In this document: in pieces, positions 1 to 9,215 of the stretch
How positions within the stretch are numbered: the stretch's first letter is position 1
Layout: each line of letters starts with the position of its first letter
Virus record (IMG/VR): IMGVR_UViG_2703719355_000010
Length of the DNA: 9,215 bases
Direction: 5' to 3' (one strand)
Source: a virus
Lineage: Duplodnaviria; Heunggongvirae; Uroviricota; Caudoviricetes
Translations under genes and position numbers: made by a program
The notes under the pieces: model-generated
Told to the model about the DNA's origin: nothing
The model's input: only the letters and a program-made list of their open reading frames with translations
Databases searched by the model: none

Positions 1-65
1 CTCCTCCGGCAGAAGCAGAAAAAGCTTATTATGCTTCCATCGGAAACGATGATCTGGCAGCCTGA
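1..65 (+). CDS. IS3-family transposase (OrfB-like), C-terminal fragment; 5' part lies outside the window
   Basis: Frame starting at nt 3 translates to PPAEAEKAYYASIGNDDLAA, stop TGA at 63-65. This resembles the P-x-E-x-E C-terminal signature of IS3-family transposases and sits about 40 nt before the terminal inverted repeat. Confidence 0.5.
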   Translation, partial: PPAEAEKAYYASIGNDDLAA

Positions 66-82
66 GTTCACAGATAAAACAC

Positions 83-107
83 TCTCCAGGAAACCCGGGG
101 CGGTTCA
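83..107 (+). repeat. 25-bp terminal inverted repeat (IRR) of the IS element
   Basis: Sequence tctccaggaaacccggggcggttca; reverse complement TGAACCGCCCCGGGTTTCCTGGAGA. The identity between the two window ends stops exactly at position 107/108. Confidence 0.6.
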
Positions 108-197
108 GTCTGCGCCGCGCTGCGTGAGTTGAACAAGCACAGGGATATTGTACGACAGATTACTGATTCTTCCCGCCATGTTGCATCGGAAAAGTGA
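108..197 (+). pseudogene. 3' remnant (29 codons) of a gene interrupted by the IS; its position just upstream of the ren-like gene suggests the tail of a replication (P-like) gene
   Basis: Open frame begins at the IS boundary (VCAALRELNKHRDIVRQITDSSRHVASEK) and stops at TGA 195-197, 15 nt before the next gene's ATG. No start codon of its own. Identity is inferred from position only. Confidence 0.3.
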
Positions 198-212
198 TTG
201 CCGGAGGCGCTT

Positions 213-605
213 ATGGCAAAAGTATTTACACAAGAAGAGCGGGAAGAAGTGAAGGCGCGCATTGTGGAATTCGTGCGCCTGAGCGGACGAGAAACTTTTC
301 GACAACTGGCAGATAAAACGGGTGTCAGTAAGACCGCTATTCGTCGTTTATCTGGTGCGCTTGCGGCCAGTGGTGATGTCTGGCTCTCTGGTTGCGGGGT
401 ATTTCCATCAGAGCAGGCGTATCGCGTATGGCGTAAGACACCGGAGAAGGCTGCTGACCCGACACTGATTCGAAAGTTACCTGACGGAGAAATACGTCGT
501 TACAACAGACGGCAGAACATAATTTGTCGTGAGTGCCGCCAGAGCGAAGTTATGCAGCGTGTGCTGGCGTTCTATCGGGGAAACTTTCAGGAGGTGATGT
601 TGTGA
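213..605 (+). CDS. Ren-like protein, 130 aa (N-terminal HTH-like region, C-terminal ECRQS...RVLA motif resembling lambda Ren)
   Basis: ATG at 213 preceded by GGAGG at 203-207. C-terminal IICRECRQSEVMQRVLAFYRG resembles my recollection of lambda Ren (KECRQSAAMKRVLAVYG). Stop overlaps the start of the next gene. The ORF-track start at 198 is a TTG and less likely. Confidence 0.5.
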   Translation: MAKVFTQEEREEVKARIVEFVRLSGRETFRQLADKTGVSKTAIRRLSGALAASGDVWLSGCGVFPSEQAYRVWRKTPEKAADPTLIRKLPDGEIRRYNRRQNIICRECRQSEVMQRVLAFYRGNFQEVML

Positions 606-1075
606 GTGAGTCGGCTACCATTCTCGACATGTGCTGTGGCAGTCGCATGTTCTGGTTTGATAAGAATGACGAACGGGCGATATTTAGCGATATCAGAAAA
701 GAAGAGCACACATTGTGTGATGGACGACGCCTGATTATCAGTCCTGACCTGATAGCAGATTTTCGAGCATTACCATTTGCAGACGCATCGTTTCCGGTTG
801 TTGTATTCGACCCTCCGCATCTTGAGCGTGTTGGTGATAACGCCTGGATGGGAAAGAAATATGGACGGCTGAATAAAGATACCTGGCGAGATGATTTGCG
901 GCAGGGATTTAAAGAAGCCTTTCGTGTGTTGTGCCCACGCGGCGTTCTGATTTTTAAATGGAATGAAACGCAAATACCTGTTCGCCAGATATTGGTACTG
1001 ACCGACAGAAAACCTGTTATCGGTCAACGAACAGGAAAAAACGATAAAACCCACTGGATTATTTTTATGAAATAG
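602..1075 (+). CDS. Small phage-type DNA N6-adenine methyltransferase, 157 aa
   Basis: GTG at 602 with AGGAGG 8-13 nt upstream, overlapping the previous stop. SAM-binding-like LDMCCGSRMF near the N-terminus and catalytic motif VVFDPPH (DPPY/DPPH class). Size fits the small phage Dam-like family. Preferred over the upstream ATG at 533, which has no RBS and would overlap the Ren-like gene by about 70 nt. Confidence 0.7.
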   Translation: MSESATILDMCCGSRMFWFDKNDERAIFSDIRKEEHTLCDGRRLIISPDLIADFRALPFADASFPVVVFDPPHLERVGDNAWMGKKYGRLNKDTWRDDLRQGFKEAFRVLCPRGVLIFKWNETQIPVRQILVLTDRKPVIGQRTGKNDKTHWIIFMK

Positions 1076-1323
1076 GCATCCAGTGAGTAGGTTCGTAAGG
1101 TTACAGATGCGTATATCTGAATAATTAAATTCAGTTCTGTAAATAAAATTTAATCCTTAACCGGAGGGATTCCTGCACCCTCAGAACATCAGGAGACCGC
1201 CCGAAAGGGCGGTAATGAAAAATGGCTGAATGAACCAAATGGCTACAAAACACGATTACCGGAATTGAAACGGTAGTAGACGATAAATCGTTTGTATGTG
1301 ATGAAATAGTATTCAAAATCGAT

Positions 1324-1689
1324 GTGGTTAAAAACGTACTTACCGCATTTAAAGTCGCGCTGGTATCGCTGGAAGCCGAACCGGTGACATGGCGATATCG
1401 CTACGTGAGAAAAGGCGTTACGAACTTTCAGGAGAAGCCGTGGGTTGGTGACTGGAAATATGTACCGACAAAAGAGGATTGCAACGACAGGCCGAACTAT
1501 GAAATTCAGGCGTTATTCACGGCCCAGCCTGTGCCACTGACACCCGAAGGATTGATTAAAGCGGTGCGCTTCTATGAACAGGTTAAGAGTGAAAATCCGC
1601 CAGTCGAAACCGGAGCATGGAAAGACGCTGTTGACTGGGTGCTCAAAGAGGCTTGTCAGGCTGTAAACATTGGCATCAAAGGAGAGTGA
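1324..1689 (+). CDS. Hypothetical phage protein, 121 aa
   Basis: Uninterrupted ORF on the same strand as its neighbours, ending 1 nt before the next gene's ATG. Start is uncertain (GTG at 1324, no clear RBS). Shares the motif AL-x-SLEA-(D/E)-PV with the N-terminal region of the 1885..3306 protein. Confidence 0.45.
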   Translation: MVKNVLTAFKVALVSLEAEPVTWRYRYVRKGVTNFQEKPWVGDWKYVPTKEDCNDRPNYEIQALFTAQPVPLTPEGLIKAVRFYEQVKSENPPVETGAWKDAVDWVLKEACQAVNIGIKGE

Positions 1690-1690
1690 G

Positions 1691-1882
1691 ATGAACGGAC
1701 AAATCTCAATTGTTCGACCGGGAGCATGTGACGATTGCGAGATACGAATGATTATTCGTCTGGCGATGGGGAAAACAATAACTGCTCTCATTACTCCAGA
1801 AAATCTCGCATTAGCATTAACAGGAAAGTCAGACCTGCCAGTAGAGCTAAAGCTGCGAAATGTTGAGATTAAGGTGAAATAG
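1691..1882 (+). CDS. Hypothetical small protein, 63 aa
   Basis: ATG at 1691 with GGAG 6 nt upstream; stop is 2 nt before the next ATG (tight, operon-like packing). No family recognised. Confidence 0.5.
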   Translation: MNGQISIVRPGACDDCEIRMIIRLAMGKTITALITPENLALALTGKSDLPVELKLRNVEIKVK

Positions 1883-1884
1883 CT

Positions 1885-3306
1885 ATGACCACTATTACCA
1901 AAGAGCGACTGCTGACAATCAAGCAGTGGCGCGAAACATACGGACCTGGTAGCAACGTTGTACTGCCAGCAGAAGAAGCGGAAGAACTGGCACGGATTGC
2001 ACTGGCATCATTGGAAGCAGATCCAGTTAAACGAGTTAACTCAGATCAGATGCACCGAGTCTGCTTAGAAGCTAATCGCTATTTAGATAAATATGACGCG
2101 ATGGCGAAAGAGGTAAATAAGTTGCTTGGACGCATCGCCCCGCCAGCGCCAGTATTTAACGGCGAATACGGTGACGCATATCAGGGCGCTCGTGAAGACC
2201 TGTCCATCTGGAAACGGCGAGCGCTTGAAGCTGATGAGCACGTTCGGCGACTGGAGCAAATCAATGACCACATGGTGAAAGAGGCGCAGGGAGAATCACG
2301 CATGGGCGAGCCTGTAATACGTGAGCCAGCACCGGTAGTGCCTGAAGAAGCAACTCCGGAAAACGTAGAAATGCTCTCTGGCTATGTTTCAACGTACAAA
2401 TTAACCGATAGCGAGCGCGATATTGCTGCCGAAATATGGAACGCCTGCCGCGCCGCCATGCTTCAGTCAGGAAACTTTCGGGAAAACAAGAATTCGTCAA
2501 CCAATAATTTTCGGGAAATCGAGGAAACGTCAACCAACTATCCGGCAATTCCTAGTGAGGTGTTGTCCGCAATCCTGAAGGTTGCCAGGATTCGTGCCGA
2601 TTTCGATGATTTTGACGGTGACAGGCGAGGTATCGGTGATTGTCTGGATGAGGCTGAGCAAGAGCTTATCGTTACCATTAACAAATATGCCAGTCAGTTG
2701 GCAGCAGAACCGATAGCGACTAATGACGTTCGAGAGCAGCAGACAGCCGTTCCGCCAGTTCCGGAAATACAGGCTGATGTCGCGCAAGCAATTGAAAATC
2801 TCAAGCAGAAGCTAGTGGAATGTAATCGCTATAACTACTGCGCAGATGCAGTTAAAGGCGTAGAGGATGCCTGCCGTGCTGTTAGCTATAGCCAAGCCGA
2901 CAATCAACCAGCATCTGGCAACCAGGCTGCCGAATCCAATCGCGGTAATGAGTGGACTGGCAATCCTGATATTGATAACGCCATCATCATGCTCGACCGC
3001 ATAGATACGCTGGAAAATTGCGATGATGACCGTATTGAGGCTGTTAAGGCTGTTTTGCGTAGACTGGCTGGCAACTATCCGGTAACTCCGGATGGTTGGA
3101 TAAGCTGTAGTGAGCGAATGCCGAATACCAAAACAGCCGTTCTTGTTGCCGTGGAGTTTGACAGGAAAGGTGACTGGCGAATGAAATGGGCTACTTACAT
3201 CCCGGGGCATCCTGACGCTAATGATGGGTGGATAATTCCTGGTGCGTCGTGGAAACCGTCACACTGGATGCCGCTACCAGAACCGCCGCAGGAGGTGCGC
3301 CAATGA
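1885..3306 (+). CDS. Large phage protein, 473 aa, with C-terminal DUF551-like domain (Eaa/Ea22-type moron protein)
   Basis: Long ORF with ATG at 1885. C-terminal 70 aa (DGWISCSERMPNTKTAVLV...GWIIPGASWKPSHWMPLPEPP) resemble the DUF551 domain common at the C-terminus of enterobacterial prophage proteins. Contains an internal 33-nt imperfect tandem repeat. Confidence 0.65.
   Translation: MTTITKERLLTIKQWRETYGPGSNVVLPAEEAEELARIALASLEADPVKRVNSDQMHRVCLEANRYLDKYDAMAKEVNKLLGRIAPPAPVFNGEYGDAYQGAREDLSIWKRRALEADEHVRRLEQINDHMVKEAQGESRMGEPVIREPAPVVPEEATPENVEMLSGYVSTYKLTDSERDIAAEIWNACRAAMLQSGNFRENKNSSTNNFREIEETSTNYPAIPSEVLSAILKVARIRADFDDFDGDRRGIGDCLDEAEQELIVTINKYASQLAAEPIATNDVREQQTAVPPVPEIQADVAQAIENLKQKLVECNRYNYCADAVKGVEDACRAVSYSQADNQPASGNQAAESNRGNEWTGNPDIDNAIIMLDRIDTLENCDDDRIEAVKAVLRRLAGNYPVTPDGWISCSERMPNTKTAVLVAVEFDRKGDWRMKWATYIPGHPDANDGWIIPGASWKPSHWMPLPEPPQEVRQ
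2473..2538. repeat. In-frame imperfect tandem duplication (2 x 33 nt) inside the 473-aa gene
   Basis: aactttcgggaaaacaagaattcgtcaaccaat followed by aattttcgggaaatcgaggaaacgtcaaccaac, encoding NFRENKNSSTN / NFREIEETSTN. Confidence 0.6.
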
Positions 3307-3386
3307 TCTGGCCTGAAGCCTTTGCAATTACAGGCGTTGCTATAGCTATTGATTTTTTAGTATATGTTATTTGTCGGTGGGGGTAA
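3303..3386 (+). CDS. Candidate small hydrophobic peptide, 27 aa
   Basis: ATG at 3303 overlaps the stop of the upstream gene (ATGA), suggesting translational coupling. Product MIWPEAFAITGVAIAIDFLVYVICRWG is mostly one hydrophobic helix. Too short for the supplied ORF track. Confidence 0.3.
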   Translation: MIWPEAFAITGVAIAIDFLVYVICRWG

Positions 3387-3421
3387 AAACGTTCGCCGGG
3401 ATTCACACCAAAGGAGGGAAT

Positions 3422-3526
3422 ATGTCGGATGATATTTCACTGGCAATGGAAGGTGCGCTGGCTGTTATTGCTGTTGTGGGCGTTTACTGCCTGGTTGTGT
3501 TTTTGATGGATCGACTAGGGAACTGA
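3422..3526 (+). CDS. Candidate small membrane peptide, 34 aa
   Basis: Strong RBS AAGGAGGG 4 nt upstream of ATG 3422. Product MSDDISLAMEGALAVIAVVGVYCLVVFLMDRLGN has an acidic N-terminus and a single predicted transmembrane helix. Too short for the supplied ORF track. Confidence 0.45.
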   Translation: MSDDISLAMEGALAVIAVVGVYCLVVFLMDRLGN

Positions 3527-3535
3527 ATTCATTAC

Positions 3536-3555
3536 GATATGGGAATTCCCATATC
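3536..3555. promoter_or_regulatory. 20-bp perfect palindrome GATATGGGAATTCCCATATC; candidate operator for a dimeric DNA-binding protein
   Basis: Perfect dyad symmetry read directly from the sequence, about 35 bp upstream of the predicted hok-locus promoter. No U-tract on either strand, so not an intrinsic terminator. Confidence 0.4.
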
Positions 3556-3567
3556 GGGTAAAAACGG

Positions 3568-3596
3568 TTTGCGGTAAAGCGAGAGTTAAGTAGAAT
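3568..3596 (+). promoter_or_regulatory. Candidate promoter of the hok/mok mRNA (-10 TAGAAT at 3591-3596, weak -35 around 3568-3574)
   Basis: A -10 hexamer TAGAAT lies 5 nt before position 3601, where the sequence that base-pairs with the mRNA 3' end begins. Confidence 0.4.
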
Positions 3597-3714
3597 TGCT
3601 GCGGGTGCTTGAGGCTATCTGCCTCGGGCATGCCACCGTAAGGCAGACAGAGAAAAGCCCCAGTTAACATTACGCGTCCGGCAAGACGCTTAACATTAAT
3701 CTGAGGCCATATCT

Positions 3715-3927
3715 ATGACTTGCACATGTAGGTTAGCCTCTTACGTGCCGAAAGGCAAGGAGAAGCAGGCTATGAAGCAGCAAAAGGCGATGTTAATCGC
3801 CCTGATCGTCATCTGTTTAACCGTCATAGTGACGGCACTGGTAACGAGGAAAGACCTCTGCGAGGTACGAATCCGAACCGGTCAGACGGAGGTCGCTGTC
3901 TTCGTAGACTACGAATCTGAGAAGTAA
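3715..3927 (+). CDS. mok: Mok-like reading frame: in-frame N-terminal extension of hok (70 aa)
   Basis: ATG at 3715 in frame with hok, mirroring the mokC/hokC arrangement I recall, where the mok frame governs hok translation. Confidence 0.55.
   Translation: MTCTCRLASYVPKGKEKQAMKQQKAMLIALIVICLTVIVTALVTRKDLCEVRIRTGQTEVAVFVDYESEK
3772..3927 (+). CDS. hok: Hok/Gef-family type I toxin, 51 aa
   Basis: Product MKQQKAMLIALIVICLTVIVTALVTRKDLCEVRIRTGQTEVAVFVDYESEK is near-identical in pattern to HokC/Gef as I recall it (MKQHKAMIVALIVICITAVVAALVTRKDLCEVHIRTGQTEVAVF...). RBS AAGGAG is 9 nt upstream. The predicted mRNA 5' end (3601-3614) pairs with the 3' end (3977-3991), the fold-back arrangement typical of hok mRNAs. 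Confidence 0.85.
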   Translation: MKQQKAMLIALIVICLTVIVTALVTRKDLCEVRIRTGQTEVAVFVDYESEK

Positions 3928-3994
3928 GAGACCAGGCGGGGGAGTAATCTCCCGCCACCTCTGATGTGTCAGGCATCCTCAACGCACCCGCACT

Positions 3995-4020
3995 AAACCC
4001 GCTTCGGCGGGTTTTTTGTT
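3995..4020 (+). terminator. Intrinsic terminator at the end of the hok transcript
   Basis: Hairpin ACCCGC-TTCG-GCGGGT followed by TTTTTTGTT. Confidence 0.75.
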
Positions 4021-4202
4021 GCGTGCTGAATGCGCAGGGTGAAAAATAACCATATATTTGATTATATACACAACAAAAAATAAAAGTCATTGTACCTGCA
4101 CATTAAATAATCAAATATACAGCGTGAAATAAATATTTTTCAGATTAATATTTTTGTCTCTATGTGGATATAACCGTTTGTACTTATAAACTCGGAGGCA
4201 TC

Positions 4203-4415
4203 GTGGAAAAAATAAAGAAACTATTTAGTTGCAAATACGCAGTCATACGTCGTGATGACCTGTCAGTTATAGTCGAAATGGATTACTTCCCTGAAACCCC
4301 AAAATCAATGATGTATCGTAATGGTCGAAAGGCAATTTTTTTACCGATGAGGGTAAGTGACATTATGGGAAATGATAAACTGCTGGATGAATTGCGAGTC
4401 AGAGCATCCTGTTAG
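4203..4415 (+). CDS. Hypothetical protein, 70 aa, encoded in an AT-rich island (moron-like)
   Basis: GTG at 4203 with GGAGG 4 nt upstream. Preceded by about 180 bp of very AT-rich sequence directly after the hok terminator. No family recognised; start uncertain (track ORF begins at GTG 4164). Confidence 0.4.
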   Translation: MEKIKKLFSCKYAVIRRDDLSVIVEMDYFPETPKSMMYRNGRKAIFLPMRVSDIMGNDKLLDELRVRASC

Positions 4416-4486
4416 TATTGGCATTAATTCTGGTATACTACATAACGGGCTGAACACCCATTCTACTGCGCCAGCGGAGAACTACG

Positions 4487-5086
4487 ATGGCGCATATACA
4501 ACTGGTCAAACAAACCTCTTCCGGATTACTTCTCCCGGCGACACCGGAGAGTTGCGATTTTTTGCATCAAATCAAAATAGGCGAGTGGATACACGCAGAC
4601 TTTAAGCGTGTGCGTAACTACGCATTCCACAAGCGTTTTTTCAAACTCCTGCAACTGGGATTCGATTACTGGACTCCGGTCGGTGGGGCGATCACGCCTC
4701 GCGAACGAGAACTGCTGTCTGGTTTCGTTGATTACCTGTGCGAATCAGTTGGTCGGGAACACACGCCAGCCCTGAGTGATGCCGCAGAGCAATATCTGAA
4801 TACAGTTGCGACACGCAGAACCCGGGATACGGCATTGTTAAAGTCGTTTGAGGCTTTTCGCGAGTGGGTAACCATTCAGGCTGGATTTTACACCGAACAT
4901 TTTTATCCGGACGGTAGCCATGGGCGTCGGGCGAAATCCATCGCTTTTGCGAATATGGACGAAACCGAGTTTCAGCAGGTTTATAAATCTGTTCTGAATG
5001 TGCTGTGGAACTGGATTCTGTTCCGTAAATTTTCCTCTCCGGAACAAGTCGAAAATGTGGCCGCGCAGCTGCTGGAGTTTGCGTAA
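4487..5086 (+). CDS. Lambdoid nin-region protein, 199 aa (DUF1367-like)
   Basis: ATG at 4487; stop overlaps the next start (TAATG). Size and position immediately upstream of a YbcO-like gene and Q fit the DUF1367 family; assignment is by recollection and gene context. Confidence 0.6.
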   Translation: MAHIQLVKQTSSGLLLPATPESCDFLHQIKIGEWIHADFKRVRNYAFHKRFFKLLQLGFDYWTPVGGAITPRERELLSGFVDYLCESVGREHTPALSDAAEQYLNTVATRRTRDTALLKSFEAFREWVTIQAGFYTEHFYPDGSHGRRAKSIAFANMDETEFQQVYKSVLNVLWNWILFRKFSSPEQVENVAAQLLEFA

Positions 5087-5376
5087 TGGTGGATTTACGT
5101 AAAGCGGCGCGGGGGCAGATGTGCACCGTCAGAATTCCTGGCTACTGCAATCACGATCCGGAAACGTCTGTGCTGGCGCATTACCGACTGGCGGGAACGT
5201 GCGGAACAGCGATAAAGCCACACGATATGCAGGCAGCGATTGCCTGTAGCTCGTGCCATGATTTAATCGACGGGCGGGTAAAAACCGGCGATTACACCAA
5301 AGAAGAATTACGCCTGATGCATGCAGAAGGTGTTTTTCGCACACAAGAAATCTGGAGAAAGGAGGGATATTTATGA
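5086..5376 (+). CDS. YbcO-like protein, 96 aa (DUF1364, putative metal-binding nuclease)
   Basis: Product MVDLRKAARGQMCTVRIPGYCNHDPETSVLAHYRL...IACSSCHDLIDGR closely follows the pattern of DLP12 YbcO as I recall it (LRKAARG...C.VRIPG.CN..PETSVLAH.RL...IACS.CHD.ID), including the conserved Cys/His positions. Overlapping start and stop with both neighbours. Confidence 0.75.
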   Translation: MVDLRKAARGQMCTVRIPGYCNHDPETSVLAHYRLAGTCGTAIKPHDMQAAIACSSCHDLIDGRVKTGDYTKEELRLMHAEGVFRTQEIWRKEGYL

Positions 5377-5927
5377 TTTACCCAACGAATACAGGAAAAA
5401 GCGGAGAACACCTTCGTCTCACCACGCTGGAAAGTGTCTGGATTCAGGGAAAACTACGTATGTGGGGGCGCTGGTCGTATATTGGCGGCGGTAAGACGGG
5501 AAATATGTTTAACCAGTTGCTGACCTCTAAAAAGCTAACAAAAACGGCAATTAATGAGGCGCTCCGGAGGATGAAAAAAGCAGGTCTGGACAAACCTGAA
5601 CTTGAGGCTTTTTTGCGGGATATGATCAACGGCAAGCAAAAAAGCTGGCTGGTGCATTGTACTGATGCAGAGGCGTTATGCATTGATCGGGTGATTAGTG
5701 AAGTGCTGGCAGAACACCCAGGATTGATTTGTATCCTCCGGCAAAGATATGAAGGGCGGGGGATGAGTAAGCGCAAAATGGCTGAATTGCTAAATGATGC
5801 ACACCCTGAGTGGTGTTTTCGGACGTGCTGCAGTCGGGTAGATGTATGGCTAAATCTTGCTGAATATATGCTCTATCTGCCGATGCGTGATGCATTCTCT
5901 TCCGGGTATTTAAAAACTGTCTGTTGA
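5373..5927 (+). CDS. Putative late-gene antiterminator Q (non-lambda Q family), 184 aa
   Basis: ATG at 5373 with GGAGGG 6 nt upstream. Sits in the Q position: downstream of nin-type genes and immediately upstream of a strong promoter plus short-transcript terminator. An N-terminal W-G-x-W motif resembles what I recall of Q82/QuuD-type proteins. Family not verified. Confidence 0.55.
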   Translation: MIYPTNTGKSGEHLRLTTLESVWIQGKLRMWGRWSYIGGGKTGNMFNQLLTSKKLTKTAINEALRRMKKAGLDKPELEAFLRDMINGKQKSWLVHCTDAEALCIDRVISEVLAEHPGLICILRQRYEGRGMSKRKMAELLNDAHPEWCFRTCCSRVDVWLNLAEYMLYLPMRDAFSSGYLKTVC

Positions 5928-5953
5928 CTCAATCTGTTATCCGGGGCTATATT
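5924..5953 (+). promoter_or_regulatory. Candidate late promoter (PR'-like): -35 TTGACT at 5924-5929, 18-nt spacer, -10 TATATT at 5948-5953
   Basis: Near-consensus sigma-70 hexamers overlapping the Q stop codon, followed by a hairpin at 5961-5978 (CGCCAG-CAAAAT-CTGGCG) in the initially transcribed region, as expected around a Q-utilisation/pause site. Confidence 0.5.
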
Positions 5954-6015
5954 CCTCACGCGCCAGCAAAATCTGGCGTCGGGATTAGGAACCCCGGATA
6001 GAGACCGCGACAGAC

Positions 6016-6040
6016 ACACGCCGCGAGCGTGTTTTTTATT
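6016..6040 (+). terminator. tR'-like intrinsic terminator downstream of the late promoter
   Basis: Hairpin ACACGC-CGCGA-GCGTGT followed by TTTTTATT, about 60-80 nt downstream of the predicted start site, analogous to the lambda PR'-tR' short transcript. Confidence 0.55.
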
Positions 6041-6200
6041 GTCGTATGCACGCGCACATCTGAATTATGGTGGGGCGTATGGGGGAGCTGAAAAGCTCGC
6101 CGGTTGGTTTCCCGGTAGTTCCTAACCCTGTACGTCTCACCACCCGATGATTAGGAACCTGACGGTGGTGATGGTTTAGAAACCACCAGAGGGCGTCATT

Positions 6201-6782
6201 ATGACAACTCAAATTTCTGTTGAAACTCTCTCCCCGATCACCCATAACCAGATTCCTGTTATTACCACCGAACTTTTGGCGCAGTTGTACGGTGCTGGAG
6301 TTAAGAACATTCAAAATAACTACGCCAGAAATGCTGAGCGCTTTATTGAAGGAAAGCATTTTTTCAAAGTGGCTGGCGATGCCCTGAAAAATTTGCGGGT
6401 AGCTTTAAACTACTCACAAAATTTGCAACTATCTTTAAGAGGGTTACAAATTTCCCCGAAAGCCCGCTCCCTCATCCTCTGGACAGAACGCGGAGCAGCC
6501 CGTCATGCCAAAATGCTGGAAACCGATCAGGCGTGGGATGTGTTCGAAAAGCTGGAAGACTGCTATTTCAGACAAAAGGATCCGTCAGCGCCAGTTTCAT
6601 GCCAGAAAAGTTACGACACGCGAGTTCTCTGTTATCAGAGAGGCGGTGTCACTGTTTCCACAATTCAGTTACGGGATGATGATATTGTTATTTCCCTTGA
6701 GTCATGGCTGGAACTGGCGAGAGCCAATGGTTGGTTTGTTGTTCGCAGAGATAAACTGGTGGAAAGGTTGATGCAGCTTTAA
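6201..6782 (+). CDS. ORF6N-domain protein (KilA-N-related, antirepressor-like DNA-binding domain), 193 aa
   Basis: N-terminal LLAQLYGAGVKNIQNNYARNAERFIEGKHFFKV matches the ORF6N signature I recall (LAELYG...N.AVKRN.ERFPEDFMF). ATG at 6201 with a GAGGG RBS. Confidence 0.65.
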   Translation: MTTQISVETLSPITHNQIPVITTELLAQLYGAGVKNIQNNYARNAERFIEGKHFFKVAGDALKNLRVALNYSQNLQLSLRGLQISPKARSLILWTERGAARHAKMLETDQAWDVFEKLEDCYFRQKDPSAPVSCQKSYDTRVLCYQRGGVTVSTIQLRDDDIVISLESWLELARANGWFVVRRDKLVERLMQL

Positions 6783-6879
6783 AAAAGTTCTTGCATTTTT
6801 GCACATAAACTGCTTCAATTCCTGTATGCTTCGCAAAGCTGTATCGCGAGGCGAAACGCAAGTTTTTTTCGCACAAGGA

Positions 6880-6902
6880 AGCCACCGGAAGGTGGTTTTT
6901 TT
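6880..6902 (+). terminator. Intrinsic terminator after the ORF6N gene
   Basis: Hairpin CCACC-GGAA-GGTGG followed by seven T residues. Confidence 0.65.
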
Positions 6903-7025
6903 GTGTCCGTAATATACAGCAGCGCAATAAATTCGCTGGTGGTTATTAATACCGTTCTTTCAGCTTGCTGGCTTTTTCGACAAGAGTTATTGGTATGTCA
7001 CGTTAACCGGAAAGGGTAAAAAGAC

Positions 7026-7223
7026 ATGCTGAAACAGCAGGATATGACAGAAACCGCCAGAGTTGTGTTTGATGAATTAAGCGTTACCGAACCGGCGACA
7101 GTCGGGGAGATTGCGCAGAATACTTACCTTTCACGCGAACGCTGCCAGTTAATACTGACCCAGCTGGTTATGGCGGGTCTGGCAGACTATCAGTGCGGTT
7201 GTTACAGACGCATTCAGTCCTGA
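7026..7223 (+). CDS. Small winged-helix regulatory protein, 65 aa (PapI/FaeA-like)
   Basis: TVGEIAQNTYLSRERCQLILTQLVMAGLA resembles the PapI/FaeA pattern I recall (TAEIAEAL.VT.YQAR.YLL.LEKAG). Start could be ATG 7026 or the internal ATG at 7041. Confidence 0.45.
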   Translation: MLKQQDMTETARVVFDELSVTEPATVGEIAQNTYLSRERCQLILTQLVMAGLADYQCGCYRRIQS

Positions 7224-7256
7224 AGGCTTTTTATTTGTGGTAAATGGGCGGCTGGT

Positions 7257-7265
7257 GGGGGGGGG
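7257..7265. repeat. Homopolymeric G9 tract in the intergenic region upstream of the AraC-family gene
   Basis: Nine consecutive G residues read directly, about 30 bp upstream of a candidate promoter (TTGATG at 7294-7299, TATAAT at 7319-7324). Confidence 0.9.
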
Positions 7266-7359
7266 CGGCACCTGTCAGTCCTTTGCTTATGTGTTGATGA
7301 TAATTTACCTTTTGGGGCTATAATTGAGCTAACCAATTGCTAATGAAAGTAAAATTATA

Positions 7360-8073
7360 ATGGCTGTTGTCTGTTCAGTTATCATGGTTTGCTCCCCAAT
7401 TAATATTTTTCTTGAAAAGGATACGTTGTCACTTAAGCCAGGCTCAGTCGTTCTGGCCACCAAATGCATCAGGGAGCTTTTCCTTATGCATTATGGCAAA
7501 GTTAAAATTGTCGATATAAGCGAATCCGTCGTAAGTCAATATCTGGAAAGTCAGCATAAGCTGACGAGGACTCGTCTGACTGACATTCCGCTTTACCTGT
7601 TGCTGGAACCCAACAATCCTGCGTTGGCTGCGGCTTTAATTACCAGCCAGGGATTTTCCGGAGAGGTCACGGATATGTTTCTTATGATGGCCTGCCTGTC
7701 TCTGTTTGAAACAGATGAACGGATGTCATTGTTTTTAAGTGGATGTTTATCCAGCATAAGTGCCAAAGTCAGGGCGATAATTCAGACAGATATATCAGCA
7801 AGCTGGACGCTTGGTGCGATTGCTCTACAGTTGCATATGAGTGAGAGTTTGTTAAAGACAAAACTGAAAAATGAAGGGGGCATGTTCAGTCGCTTGTTGC
7901 TGGAAGAGCGGATGCGTGTTGCTGTAAATATGTTATGTTCCCGACATGGATATGGACAGGCTGTAGCAGAAAAATGCGGTTATTCAAGCAGGTCCTACTT
8001 TATTTCTGTATTTCACCGCTATTATGGCTTCCCGCCAGACAGATATGTATCCAGGCAAGGGCTTGATTATTGA
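7360..8073 (+). CDS. AraC/XylS-family transcriptional regulator, 237 aa (prophage-encoded; PatE/Psr-like class)
   Basis: The C-terminal 100 aa carry the tandem HTH signature of the AraC family (...SRSYFISVFHRYYGFPPDRY). Start codon is uncertain: ATG 7360, 7387 and 7486 are all in frame and none has a strong RBS. Confidence 0.8.
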   Translation: MAVVCSVIMVCSPINIFLEKDTLSLKPGSVVLATKCIRELFLMHYGKVKIVDISESVVSQYLESQHKLTRTRLTDIPLYLLLEPNNPALAAALITSQGFSGEVTDMFLMMACLSLFETDERMSLFLSGCLSSISAKVRAIIQTDISASWTLGAIALQLHMSESLLKTKLKNEGGMFSRLLLEERMRVAVNMLCSRHGYGQAVAEKCGYSSRSYFISVFHRYYGFPPDRYVSRQGLDY

Positions 8074-8101
8074 TTTTCATCTGATTATTATTTTTTGGCT
8101 C

Positions 8102-8177
8102 GGCCCTTTAGCTCAGTGGTGAGAGCGAGCGACTCATAATCGCCAGGTCGCTGGTTCAAATCCAGCAAGGGCCACCA
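8102..8177 (+). tRNA. tRNA with anticodon CAU; sequence pattern of tRNA-Ile2 (lysidine type, ileX-like) rather than tRNA-Met
   Basis: Cloverleaf folded by hand: acceptor GGCCCTT/AAGGGCC, D-stem GCTC/GAGC, anticodon loop CTCATAA, T-loop TTCAAAT, encoded CCA. Close to my recollection of E. coli ileX. Confidence 0.8.
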
Positions 8178-8178
8178 A

Positions 8179-8255
8179 CCGCCACTAGCTCATCAGGAAA
8201 GAGCGTCAACCCTTTAAGTTGAGTGTGCGAGGTTCGAGTCCCCGGTGGCGGTCCA
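8179..8255 (+). tRNA. Atypical tRNA or tRNA-like gene; anticodon loop CCTTTAA (nominal anticodon UUU, Lys) with C instead of U at position 33 and an unusual D-loop
   Basis: 7-bp acceptor stem CCGCCAC/GTGGCGG, T-loop TTCGAGT, encoded CCA, 5-bp anticodon stem TCAAC/GTTGA. Deviations: 5' C, D-loop ATCAGGAAA, C33, one A-C mismatch in the T-stem. May be a degenerate or specialised tRNA. Confidence 0.5.
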
Positions 8256-8257
8256 GT

Positions 8258-8333
<76 letters not shown>

Positions 8334-8336
8334 TAT

Positions 8337-8411
<75 letters not shown>

Positions 8412-8417
8412 GTTAGA

Positions 8418-8463
8418 GTCTTTCAGTCTGCGATGATGGGAAATCCCGGAGTGACTGAAAGAC
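8418..8463 (+). repeat. Perfect 11-bp inverted repeat (GTCTTTCAGTC / GACTGAAAGAC) with a 24-nt loop, immediately after the tRNA array
   Basis: Read directly; no U-tract follows, so not a canonical terminator. Possible processing, structural or binding site. Confidence 0.5.
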
Positions 8464-8470
8464 GTTTAGG

Positions 8471-8543
8471 TTATGAATGATCGCTTTTTTTTGCAAAATT
8501 GCTGTGCAGAAATACTAACCTTCGGGCAGGCGATCATTCATAA
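8471..8543 (+). repeat. Perfect 14-bp inverted repeat (TTATGAATGATCGC / GCGATCATTCATAA) separated by 45 nt
   Basis: Read directly; the loop contains a T8 run. Could form a long stem-loop in RNA or be a protein-recognition or recombination site. Confidence 0.5.
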
Positions 8544-8618
8544 GCACTCTGCTTTTATTCCGATTAACTGTGGGTGGTTTGTTGGATAGAGTGCTTTCCT
8601 GACTGTAGATCCAATTTC

Positions 8619-8644
8619 GCCCGCTTTTGCGGGCTTTTCTTTTC
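8619..8644 (+). terminator. Intrinsic terminator upstream of the holin gene
   Basis: Hairpin GCCCGC-TTTT-GCGGGC followed by TTTTCTTTTC. Confidence 0.7.
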
Positions 8645-8703
8645 AAATCCCTTTCATCTCTCAGTGTAAAACTACGCCATCCGTTATTTGCGGAGGTGAG
8701 GCT

Positions 8704-8919
8704 ATGAAATCCATGGACAAAATTTCAACGGGCATTGCCTACGGCACCTCCGCAGGCAGTGCTGGCTACTGGTTTTTACAGTGGCTTGATCAAGTCAGTC
8801 CGTCACAGTGGGCTGCGATTGGTGTACTGGGGAGTCTGATTCTGGGCTTCCTGACTTATCTGACAAATCTGTACTTCAAAATCAGAGAAGACAAGCGTAA
8901 GGCTGCACGGGGAGAGTAA
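8704..8919 (+). CDS. S: Class II holin / pinholin of the phage 21 S type (S21-like), 71 aa, with dual-start motif
   Basis: Product [71 protein letters not shown] matches my recollection of S21 almost residue for residue, including the Met1/Met4 dual start (MKSM). GGAGG RBS 7 nt upstream. Confidence 0.85.
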
Positions 8920-8923
8920 TTCA

Positions 8924-9148
8924 ATGACTCAAAACTATGAAGTGATTGTGAAAGGGATCCGCAATTTTGAGAATAAAGTTACGGTAACTTTAGCGTTACG
9001 GGACAAAAAACGCTTTGACGGTGAAATTTTTGACCTGGACATCTCGCTGGACCGTGTTGAAGGTGCCGCGCTGGAGTTTTATGAGGCAGCAGCCAGAAGG
9101 AGCATCAGTGAACCGCCCCGGGTTTCCTGGAGAGTGTTTTATCTGTGA
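8924..9148 (+). pseudogene. Gene of unknown function truncated by the right-hand IS; the first 61 codons are native and the last 13 (EPPRVSWRVFYL plus stop) come from the IS end
   Basis: ATG 8924 with GGAGAG RBS. The reading frame crosses the IS boundary at 9109 and terminates inside the IS terminal repeat. The native N-terminus (MTQNYEVIVKGIRNFENKVTVTLALRDKKRF...) is not a recognisable endolysin. Confidence 0.45.
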
Positions 9149-9215
9149 ACTCAGGCTGCCAGATCATCGTTTCCGATGGAAGCATAATAAGCTTTTTCTG
9201 CTTCTGCCGGAGGAG
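9109..9215 (-). mobile_element. Right-end fragment of a second copy of the same IS3-family element in inverted orientation; the element continues to the right of the window
   Basis: Exact reverse complement of 1..107; begins at 9109 with TGAACCGCCCCGGGTTTCCTGGAGA. Confidence 0.7.
9151..9215 (-). CDS. IS3-family transposase C-terminal fragment, partial (mirror of 1..65)
   Basis: Same frame as the left copy read on the minus strand; stop codon at 9151-9153. Confidence 0.5.
   Translation of the reverse strand, partial: PPAEAEKAYYASIGNDDLAA

Follow-up and report, generated by a model that had tools for sequence, protein, structure and literature searches.

Three genes between Q and the tRNA array of a lambdoid Escherichia coli prophage: a probable mosaic of an antirepressor cassette, a winged-helix gene and a psr allele

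Do three genes for predicted nucleic-acid-binding proteins that lie between the Q-like antiterminator gene and the tRNA array of a prophage form one unit that reprograms the host, or did they arrive there separately? The question is raised by a stretch of 9,215 nucleotides (nt) from IMG/VR record IMGVR_UViG_2703719355_000010 (the whole stretch is called the window here), which comes from a degraded lambdoid prophage of Escherichia coli and forms its late-regulatory region. An earlier note on this DNA had seen a single lysogenic-conversion regulatory module in the interval and had described its genes as those of an ORF6N-domain protein, a PapI/FaeA-like winged-helix protein of 65 amino acids (aa) and an AraC-family regulator. 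We found all three open reading frames (ORFs) where they had been placed, between a Q-like gene and four tRNA genes (Table 1). Genome annotation leaves the stretch as 'helix-turn-helix domain-containing', 'hypothetical' and 'ORF6N domain'; names can now be assigned, and the stretch now holds a Psr-family virulence and acid-resistance regulator and an IsrK/C4-type antirepressor switch of distinct specificity.

We conclude that the interval is in all probability a mosaic of three separately acquired modules, namely an antirepressor cassette, the post-Q segment with the 65-aa gene, and a psr moron. Module 1 would span 5924-6906, module 2 would be the native post-Q segment at 6783-7296 and module 3 would be the psr moron at 7297-8073. 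Natural intermediates carry this conclusion. Sakai prophage Sp10 has Q, ~100 nt and a terminator followed by ileZ/argO, with no cargo, and the O157:H7 locus Gim1-1 has Q, the same ~100 nt, the terminator, the 65-aa gene, the AraC gene (99.4% sequence identity to the window copy) and the tRNA genes. Hence, the modules were probably acquired separately. Direct results here are the family assignments, the covariation of the RNA elements, the synteny, the modularity and the purifying selection; the regulatory outputs given below are all inferred.

We surveyed 5426 complete E. coli genomes and found the 65-aa gene in 2886, the 65-aa gene together with psr in 725 and the full three-module combination in 35. 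Each module is common, and the full combination is rare. The Psr-type regulator and its small neighbour are thus present in ~13% of complete E. coli genomes, and the modular picture warns experimenters against treating the three genes as one operon.

The antirepressor cassette after Q

The first module begins in the 270 nt between Q and the start of the ORF6N gene, which hold a promoter, an isrK-like small RNA (sRNA) gene overlapping a c4-a1b1 target element, and a C4-type antisense RNA. Judged against the curated Rfam gathering cut-offs, isrK matches 5960-6037 with 69.4 bits (cut-off 50) and c4-a1b1 matches 5947-6000 with 47.8 bits (cut-off 46.7); the C4 match likewise exceeds its cut-off (Table 1). 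The element GATTAGGAACC, which is complementary to the C4 loop GTTCCTAA, is present twice as an 11-nt exact repeat, once upstream (5983-5993) and once downstream of the C4 RNA (6149-6159), and the downstream C4 targets abut the Shine-Dalgarno sequence AGAGGG (6188-6193) of the ORF6N gene.

Covariation was examined in six cassettes, that of the window and those of the ORF6N-type ant loci of VT2-Sakai, Lys19259Vzw, PhiR12_1, PA2 and Stx2_716. We found isrK and C4 directly 5' of ant in all five other phage loci, and an exact complement of the C4 loop (7-8 nt) in one upstream and one downstream copy in every one of the six, the downstream copy lying ~50 nt 5' of the ant ATG each time. The loops fall into four specificity types (TTAGGAAC, TTGGCGT, TTTGCAC and TTCGAAC), and the first-loop (a) sites also covary across the cassettes. 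On sequence grounds, this covariation of loop and target is the signature of P1/P7-type immI specificity.

The ORF6N domain named by the earlier note is confirmed by Pfam, and we assign the gene by homology as that of an antirepressor. The N-terminal 125 aa of its product share 78% identity with the Ant protein of VT2-Sakai, and its C-terminal domain is unlike those of the Stx-phage Ants. PADLOC, run on the three proteins of the interval, gave no defence-system assignment beyond weak PDC-S05 matches to the ORF6N domain. The unit of promoter, isrK, C4 and ant is found within the nin region of VT2-Sakai, PhiR12_1 and others, with ninE on one side, roi on the other and an unrelated Q far downstream. 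Since the ORF6N gene lies in an isrK/C4 antirepressor cassette that is found also in the nin region of Stx phages, it belongs to a circuit of induction and immunity internal to the phage, and is a phage immunity switch of a known kind. Its reading as a lysogenic-conversion gene thus gives way to the outcome that the earlier note itself had named as contrary, an antirepressor circuit.

In the mechanism that we propose, transcription from the isrK promoter would mostly stop at the terminator at 6016-6037 and so give a short IsrK-like RNA. Read-through RNA would contain the C4-type antisense RNA, whose loop would pair with the two target sites, and as the second of these adjoins the ant ribosome-binding site, translation of Ant would be held off in the lysogen. 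Ant, once made, would inactivate a prophage repressor and promote early and Q expression. The cassette would benefit the phage rather than the host.

This arrangement resembles the Gifsy-1 isrK locus (antQ - isrK - orf45/STnc1160 - anrP - isrJ). In Gifsy-1, where the genes run antQ-isrK-orf45-anrP and a processed RNA of ~80 nt is made, anrP is transcribed from the isrK promoter; its read-through mRNA is not translated unless IsrK activates it in trans, and AnrP raises antQ expression (PMC4825925). The two loci share a Q-like gene, isrK, a C4-like RNA at the 'orf45' position, an antirepressor-like gene, a terminator within the leader, and IsrK segments complementary to the downstream leader. 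They differ in that no ORF in the window is coupled to the ant start codon (the sole plus-strand leader ORF, 6067-6150, 27 aa, has no stop/start overlap with ant) and in that the Rfam scan found no isrJ match in the window.

The P1/P7 immI locus (c4 antisense RNA - icd - ant) is alike in having a C4-family RNA, an upstream (a1b1) pair and a downstream pair of targets beside the ribosome-binding site, and loop-target covariation that sets specificities, as in P1/P7 heteroimmunity. The window phage differs from it in being lambdoid and in having no icd homologue, an ORF6N-type Ant and an intrinsic terminator between a1b1 and C4.

The alignments indicate that the cassette is an insertion in the window, where the ~100-nt post-Q segment is displaced to after the ORF6N gene. 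The displaced segment (6783-6906) contains what is left of the final ~7 codons of an Sp10-type Q (AAAAAAGTTcTTGCaTTTTTG) and ends in a terminator with a 16-bp stem and U-run in the predicted fold, whose stem shows compensatory changes between loci. The window Q has ~97% sequence identity to the Sp10 Q over the first ~300 nt and diverges after codon ~100. Because this segment directly follows a DUF1133-type Q in related prophages, it is the natural candidate for the Q-associated pR'/tR' unit. The scan found no pR' within 6783-6870, which holds no convincing -10/-35 pair and poor hexamers only.

The earlier note had instead placed a candidate late promoter and a tR'-like terminator directly after Q. 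A promoter-like sequence (5924-5953) and a terminator (6016-6037) do stand there, and it is their identity as pR'/tR' that is doubtful, the Rfam matches marking this unit as an isrK gene overlapping c4-a1b1. The same unit could nonetheless be a Q-dependent late promoter with its tR', from which Q-modified polymerase would read ant, the 65-aa gene, psr and the tRNA genes into the lysis genes. Its position immediately 3' of Q recalls lambda and the antQ-isrK order of Gifsy-1, its short terminated transcript recalls lambda 6S RNA and StxS, and the divergent 3' part of the window Q was invariably joined to the cassette in our sample (129 genomes). However, the promoter-isrK-C4 unit also occurs in the nin region of VT2-Sakai, PhiR12_1 and others, where Q is unrelated and far downstream, and the segment at 6783-6906 holds both the Q 3' remnant and the post-Q DNA of Sp10 and Gim1-1. 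We therefore regard a late-promoter role for the isrK promoter as unlikely.

A psr allele before the tRNA genes

The third gene is the one for which the lysogenic-conversion reading was right. Its membership of the AraC family was upheld by two Pfam domains (Table 1), and the comparison with PatE, PsrA and PsrB that the earlier note had suggested places it close to PsrA. We found 216 of 237 residues (91%) identical to the full ORF ECs_1087 of Sakai, with 21 substitutions and membership of the same 90% cluster. This gene, ecs1087 in prophage Sp4, is named psrA in a 2026 paper from the laboratory that discovered Psr, and psrA of Sakai Sp4 is expressed and regulated (PMC13502914). Synteny is also as in Sakai Sp4, with a small ORF, psr and an ileZ-type tRNA gene downstream of Q. 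Identity to ECs_0287 is 37% over 235 residues; since ECs_0287 is the only AraC-type gene annotated in Sakai Sp1/OI-8, it is presumably PatE.

The best NCBIfam matches were YdeO (1e-30, full length) and GadX (5e-25, C-terminal half), at 107 bits against an equivalog cut-off of 348, and the closest solved structure was the GadX DNA-binding domain (5e-19). Members of the psr family occur in E. coli and Shigella only; their variants lie at ~99, 92, 89, 78, 75, 65, 63, 58, 57 and 39% identity, a spread that fits the several reported Psr homologues.

PsrA and PsrB are 90% identical to each other. Both activate gadE/yhiF, PsrB binds at the promoters of gadE and hdeA, and the outcome is repressed secretion from the enterocyte effacement locus (LEE) and raised acid resistance (PMC10877973, PMC8565820). 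These comparisons support the AraC gene as a prophage-borne, host-reprogramming regulator of the PsrA/PsrB/PatE type. By homology to PsrA/PsrB and by its YdeO/GadX-like architecture, its product would bind the gadE and hdeA promoters, and the window allele most likely activates gadE/hdeA and indirectly represses LEE.

Among its known relatives, the gene is closest to PsrA/PsrB, the prophage-encoded secretion regulators of enterohaemorrhagic E. coli O157:H7, which it matches in protein sequence, in its position before an ileZ-type tRNA gene and in the presence of NleG-type genes in the closest prophage. It differs from them in being a distinct allele, with the antirepressor cassette 5' and a different tRNA set (Ile2, Lys, Thr, Gly) 3'. 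PatE, the acid-resistance activator of OI-8/Sp1, is homologous over the full length and shares the domain layout; it is far more distant than PsrA and lies at the end of a degraded prophage, not between Q and tRNA genes. YdeO and GadX, the core E. coli acid-resistance AraC regulators, give the best curated-family similarity, which fits the reported action of PsrA/PsrB on gadE, whereas the window gene is no orthologue of either (its scores are far under the equivalog cut-off), is phage-borne and belongs to a family found in E. coli and Shigella only.

In most E. coli, Salmonella and Klebsiella prophages, the 65-aa gene is followed by a DNA methyltransferase gene rather than by psr, and homology between these methyltransferase-type loci and the psr-type loci ends at ~7296, just 5' of the psr promoter. 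Hence, psr is a moron, which came with a promoter of its own and displaced the methyltransferase from a conserved slot flanked by Q and by the tRNA and lysis genes; the same late-region slot carries stx in Stx phages. The G+C content is lower at 7201-8000 (0.43-0.45) than in the surroundings. In phiSTEC1575-Stx2k, the 65-aa gene and psr (92% protein identity) stand as a pair directly 5' of the tRNA genes and stx2k.

The window allele has 99.4% sequence identity to copies in O157:H7 and O145, of which one may be PsrB, and the O145 homologue locus also contains a PerC/Pch gene. We found no second psr in Sakai Sp6, Sp9, Sp10 and Sp14 (Sp11 and Sp12 were not covered).

The 65-aa gene, its methyltransferase partner and the Chi sites

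AlphaFold2 models the 65-aa protein confidently as a winged helix-turn-helix, made up of helices H1-H3 and a wing (pLDDT, the model's per-residue confidence, 89). Hence the fold given by the earlier note stands, and it is the likeness to PapI/FaeA that does not. Pfam gave only sub-threshold generic winged-helix matches (eight families, with TrmB at 0.003, then DprA_WH, MarR_2 and others) and none to FaeA/PapI at E ≤ 10. A phmmer search of the PDB had no match, the profile of a 20-member family found no PapI, and PapI was not among the top structural matches of the model and so is not its closest fold. The protein is predicted to be a generic DNA- or nucleic-acid-binding winged helix. It shares with PapI/FaeA, the Lrp co-regulators of Dam-dependent fimbrial phase variation, the general class of a small stand-alone winged helix of ~65-77 residues; it differs from them in the lack of sequence or profile similarity, GATC pairs, a fimbrial operon and a papB-like neighbour.

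The 65-aa gene is a real gene under purifying selection. The ratio of nonsynonymous to synonymous substitution rates (dN/dS) was 0.02-0.2 against a diverged copy (0.02-0.15 against a copy with dS ~0.33), with replacements clustered in the last four residues, and the protein is 77-91% identical across Escherichia, Salmonella, Klebsiella, Citrobacter and Buttiauxella.

The earlier note had also seen a hint of an epigenetic link, since PapI works at Dam-methylated GATC sites and the element encodes an adenine methyltransferase of its own. The methyltransferase at 533-1075 (180 aa) is there, as indicated by PHROG (DNA methyltransferase, 1.6e-86), PADLOC (MTase_II/orphan MTase) and a DPPH motif in the translation; an adenine or GATC specificity for it would be conjectural. 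No good Pfam family or solved relative was found for this enzyme, and the nin-region methylase of VT2-Sakai is unrelated to it. We found no GATC site between 6583 and 8478 and a depletion of GATC across the window (19 observed, 34 ± 5 expected), and the window has no fimbrial genes at all and no divergent papB-like gene near the 65-aa gene. We found nothing that ties the 533-1075 enzyme to the 65-aa protein, and the proposed PapI/Dam link is not supported.

In the gene neighbourhood of other phages, the idea of a methylation link finds some basis. The usual 3' partner of the 65-aa gene, in APEC O1, M1/5, Sakai Sp9, Salmonella and most sampled Klebsiella, is a PF01555 N6/N4 DNA methyltransferase of ~350 aa, and the layout of these loci is Q, terminator, 65-aa gene, ~150 nt, PF01555 methyltransferase, then tRNA or lysis genes. 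One Klebsiella locus is an exception, with no methyltransferase called 3' of the 65-aa gene and a TerB-like gene as the next called gene. Because the enzyme at 533-1075 is of a different family from the PF01555 partner, the link fails for this element.

Each of the three genes had also been credited with a terminator or candidate promoter of its own. This holds for the ORF6N gene, with the isrK promoter and the terminator at 6871-6906. The 65-aa gene has a terminator-like hairpin overlapping its stop codon and no promoter, and the AraC gene has a promoter and no terminator, none being found between it and the tRNA genes. Raw scan counts were not above chance (5 promoter-like sequences against 4.0 ± 1.8, and 7 terminator-like ones against 3.2 ± 2.0), so the sites are credible because they are conserved and not because of the scan. 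The hairpin of the 65-aa gene carries an A.G mismatch in the window, forms a perfect stem in other E. coli copies and has the compensatory form CCTCCC...GGGAGG in Klebsiella. For the 65-aa gene, as within 6783-6870, the scan gave no sigma-70 promoter and the hexamers present are poor, TTGCAT-17-TTCAAT lacking the A at position 2 of its -10; hence, the gene is probably expressed by read-through in a late transcript.

Two Chi sites (GCTGGTGG), both on the plus strand and the sole ones of the window, bracket the 65-aa gene, against 0.35 expected in the window, and at least two occurred in 11 of 200 shuffles. In the methyltransferase-type loci, the second Chi makes up one side of a perfect 12-bp palindrome (GGCTGGTGGGTG-N7-CACCCACCAGCC), which puts Chi on both strands (loci L006 and L011); the palindrome is degraded in the psr-type loci. 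As side observations, mosaic breakpoints lie close to the Chi sites, and the G9 homopolymer at 7257-7265, ~35 nt 5' of the psr -35, is G8 in Gim1-1 and GGGTGTTAG in other loci, so that the tract may vary in length. The leader of the 65-aa gene (~125 nt, 6903-7045) is nearly invariant between loci that differ upstream, and its start codon region GACAUGCU is predicted to pair with GGUAUGUC (fold z-score -4.9, with the terminator included in the folded stretch), which may provide translational control.

The constancy of this neighbourhood suggests another arrangement, in which the 65-aa protein is a dedicated controller, comparable to C proteins in restriction-modification systems, of whichever gene fills the downstream slot (psr in the window, the PF01555 methyltransferase in other loci), so that modules 2 and 3 would be one unit. 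The spacing from the 65-aa gene to its partner is fixed at ~140-150 nt across genera, ~73 nt 3' of the gene are conserved between methyltransferase-type and psr-type loci and include the perfect palindrome in the former, and purifying selection holds in psr-type loci as well. However, the palindrome amounts to two convergent Chi sites and is degraded where psr is the partner, psr has its own promoter beyond the homology breakpoint, and in the Klebsiella exception a TerB-like gene comes next with no methyltransferase called. In addition, ECs_1086 beside psrA in Sakai Sp4 (L003 28344-28583) has a 1-bp deletion after codon 49 that replaces the wing and gives an ORF of 79 aa, yet psrA there is expressed and regulated (PMC13502914), which argues against an obligatory partnership. 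Hence, we think a dedicated controller improbable.

The 65-aa protein and its Chi-flanked, cargo-swapping neighbourhood are the least-explained element of the interval. A wider form of the controller idea, to which we give little credence, is that enterobacterial lambdoid prophages have a slot for exchangeable cargo, that the Chi-bracketed 65-aa gene is its conserved 'leader', and that this gene acts as a C-protein-like controller that times or limits the downstream gene. If this were true, psr output would be coupled to the late or induction state of the phage, and the Chi sites would be recombination hotspots that drive cargo exchange.

Several points weigh against the reading of three modules with the roles given above. 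Purifying selection on the 65-aa gene persists in psr-type loci, so a functional link to psr is possible. The co-occurrence of the Q 3' end with the cassette would also fit the isrK promoter as the late promoter on which Q acts. The Gifsy-1 orf45 equivalent is missing, ORF 6067-6150 stopping 50 nt before the ant ATG, and therefore control details may differ from Gifsy-1. For the third module, the equation of ECs1087 with psrA comes from one sentence in PMC13502914, and reviews give the EDL933 tags z1789 and z2104; the function proposed for the window allele is transferred from a PsrA that differs at 21 of 237 residues.

The earlier note's model of one lysogenic-conversion module, with a 65-aa protein acting like PapI at Dam-methylated GATC and linked to the element's own methyltransferase, draws on the predicted nucleic-acid-binding folds of all three proteins, on an AraC gene that by homology does look like a host-reprogramming regulator and on the methyltransferase gene that adjoins the 65-aa gene in other prophages, but it is highly improbable given a 65-aa protein with no PapI/FaeA similarity in Pfam, PDB sequence and profile searches or fold ranking, the scarcity of GATC sites, a window methyltransferase outside the partner family, modules that occur independently, and an ORF6N gene that appears to be an antisense-controlled antirepressor found elsewhere in the nin region, for which the model is already largely refuted. 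Hence, the lysogenic-conversion reading is right for one of the three genes, and that gene belongs to the Psr regulator family described in 2011.

Features and surroundings of the interval

Table 1. Features of the interval between Q and the tRNA array, with its boundaries, in window coordinates
Feature	Position	Strand	Evidence or remark
Q-like antiterminator, DUF1133 type	5373-5927	+	Pfam DUF1133 1e-106 and weak Phage_antitermQ 3e-6; PHROG 753 'anti-termination protein Q-like'; left boundary
Cassette promoter (PisrK equivalent), TTGACT-18-TATATT	5924-5953	+	Consensus scan, 10/12 matches; hexamers TTGAC and TATATT kept in VT2-Sakai nin-region copy
isrK-like sRNA gene overlapping c4-a1b1 target element, ending at intrinsic terminator 6016-6037	5947-6037	+	Rfam; terminator by scan
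C4-type antisense RNA, specificity loop GTTCCTAA at 6118-6125	6063-6147	+	Rfam C4, 67 bits (cut-off 45)
Downstream (a2/b2-type) C4 targets, GATTAGGAACC at 6149-6159 and GAAACC at 6179-6184	6149-6193	+	Repeat, loop complementarity, covariation
Antirepressor gene (by homology), ORF6N N-terminal and variable C-terminal domain, AnrP/Ant analogue	6201-6782	+	193 aa; Pfam ORF6N 4e-19; PHROG 2379 anti-repressor 1e-90 and many other Ant families
Segment normally directly after DUF1133-type Q: Q 3' remnant, conserved ~60-nt stretch, strong terminator 6871-6906	6783-6906	+	Alignments with Sakai Sp10 and O157 Gim1-1
Chi site GCTGGTGG, 5' of 65-aa gene	6935-6942	+	Kept in all E. coli loci fetched
Gene of 65-aa stand-alone winged-helix protein, PHROG 331	7026-7223	+	AlphaFold2, dN/dS, conservation, weak Pfam
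Terminator-like hairpin GCATTCA-GTCC-TGAAGGC with T-run, overlapping 65-aa stop codon	7210-7236	+	Alignment
Second Chi (7251-7258) running into G9 tract (7257-7265)	7251-7265	+	Kept in all E. coli loci fetched
psr promoter, sigma-70-type, ATGATA-16-TATAAT	7297-7324	+	Scan, 10/12 matches; invariant in psr-type loci
psr allele: AraC/XylS-family regulator, PsrA/PsrB family, YdeO/GadX-like	7360-8073	+	237 aa; Pfam HTH_AraC 3e-13 and HTH_18 1e-9, above cut-offs
tRNA array: ileZ-type (CAT), Lys(TTT), Thr(TGT), Gly(TCC)	8102-8411	+	ARAGORN; right boundary

The closest relative of the window, at 99.87% identity over bases 108-9215, is a chicken isolate's prophage, which occupies the ttcA (Rac) site; this 99.9% identical prophage carries three DUF1076 (NleG-type) effector genes, and the window stops short of them. 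With 5900-8100 as the query, prophages of O145:H28 and O157:H7 strains matched at 99.4-99.5% identity. In order, the window carries a Ren-like gene, the small DNA methyltransferase gene (533-1075) and genes for a DUF551 protein, hok/sok, DUF1367 and YbcO/DUF1364, followed by the DUF1133 Q-like gene, the interval studied, the four tRNA genes and a P21-type holin gene (8704-8919). The hok/mok toxin gene (Pfam HOK_GEF) lies at 3603-3927 in the nin-like region, with a 110-bit Rfam match to sok.

The termini of the window (1-107 and 9109-9215) form a perfect 107-nt inverted repeat, which matches the ends of the insertion sequence (IS) copies IS1203/IS629 (IS3 family) in the closest genome. Hence, either the 9-kb segment is flanked by inverted IS ends or the contig is broken within IS repeats. 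The gene 3' of the holin gene is truncated by the right-hand IS.

ARAGORN called the first tRNA gene, whose sequence is that of Sakai ileZ4, tRNA-Met, and RefSeq gives tRNA-Ile for the identical gene in the 99.9% identical locus. The tRNA slot in Sakai and Stx prophages is usually ileZ-argN-argO, and the window set differs. Downstream of the tRNA genes, Rfam matches STnc100 and the anti-sRNAs AgvB/AsxR in Sakai Sp10 (L008 20728-20982) and VT2-Sakai (L005 11115-11374), and it finds no STnc100, AgvB or AsxR in the window. The sRNA HnrS up-regulates psrA in Sakai; the tRNA-holin spacer of the window (8412-8710) has no similarity to Sakai Sp10, which carries hnrS. Within 8462-8644 of this spacer stand a promoter-like sequence read by eye, TTGCAA-16-TACTAA, an inverted repeat of long range (GTTATGAATGATCGC / GCGATCATTCATAA) and, at 8616-8644, a strong terminator, 60 nt 5' of the holin start. 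This part of the spacer is a further possible site of a short late-leader transcript.

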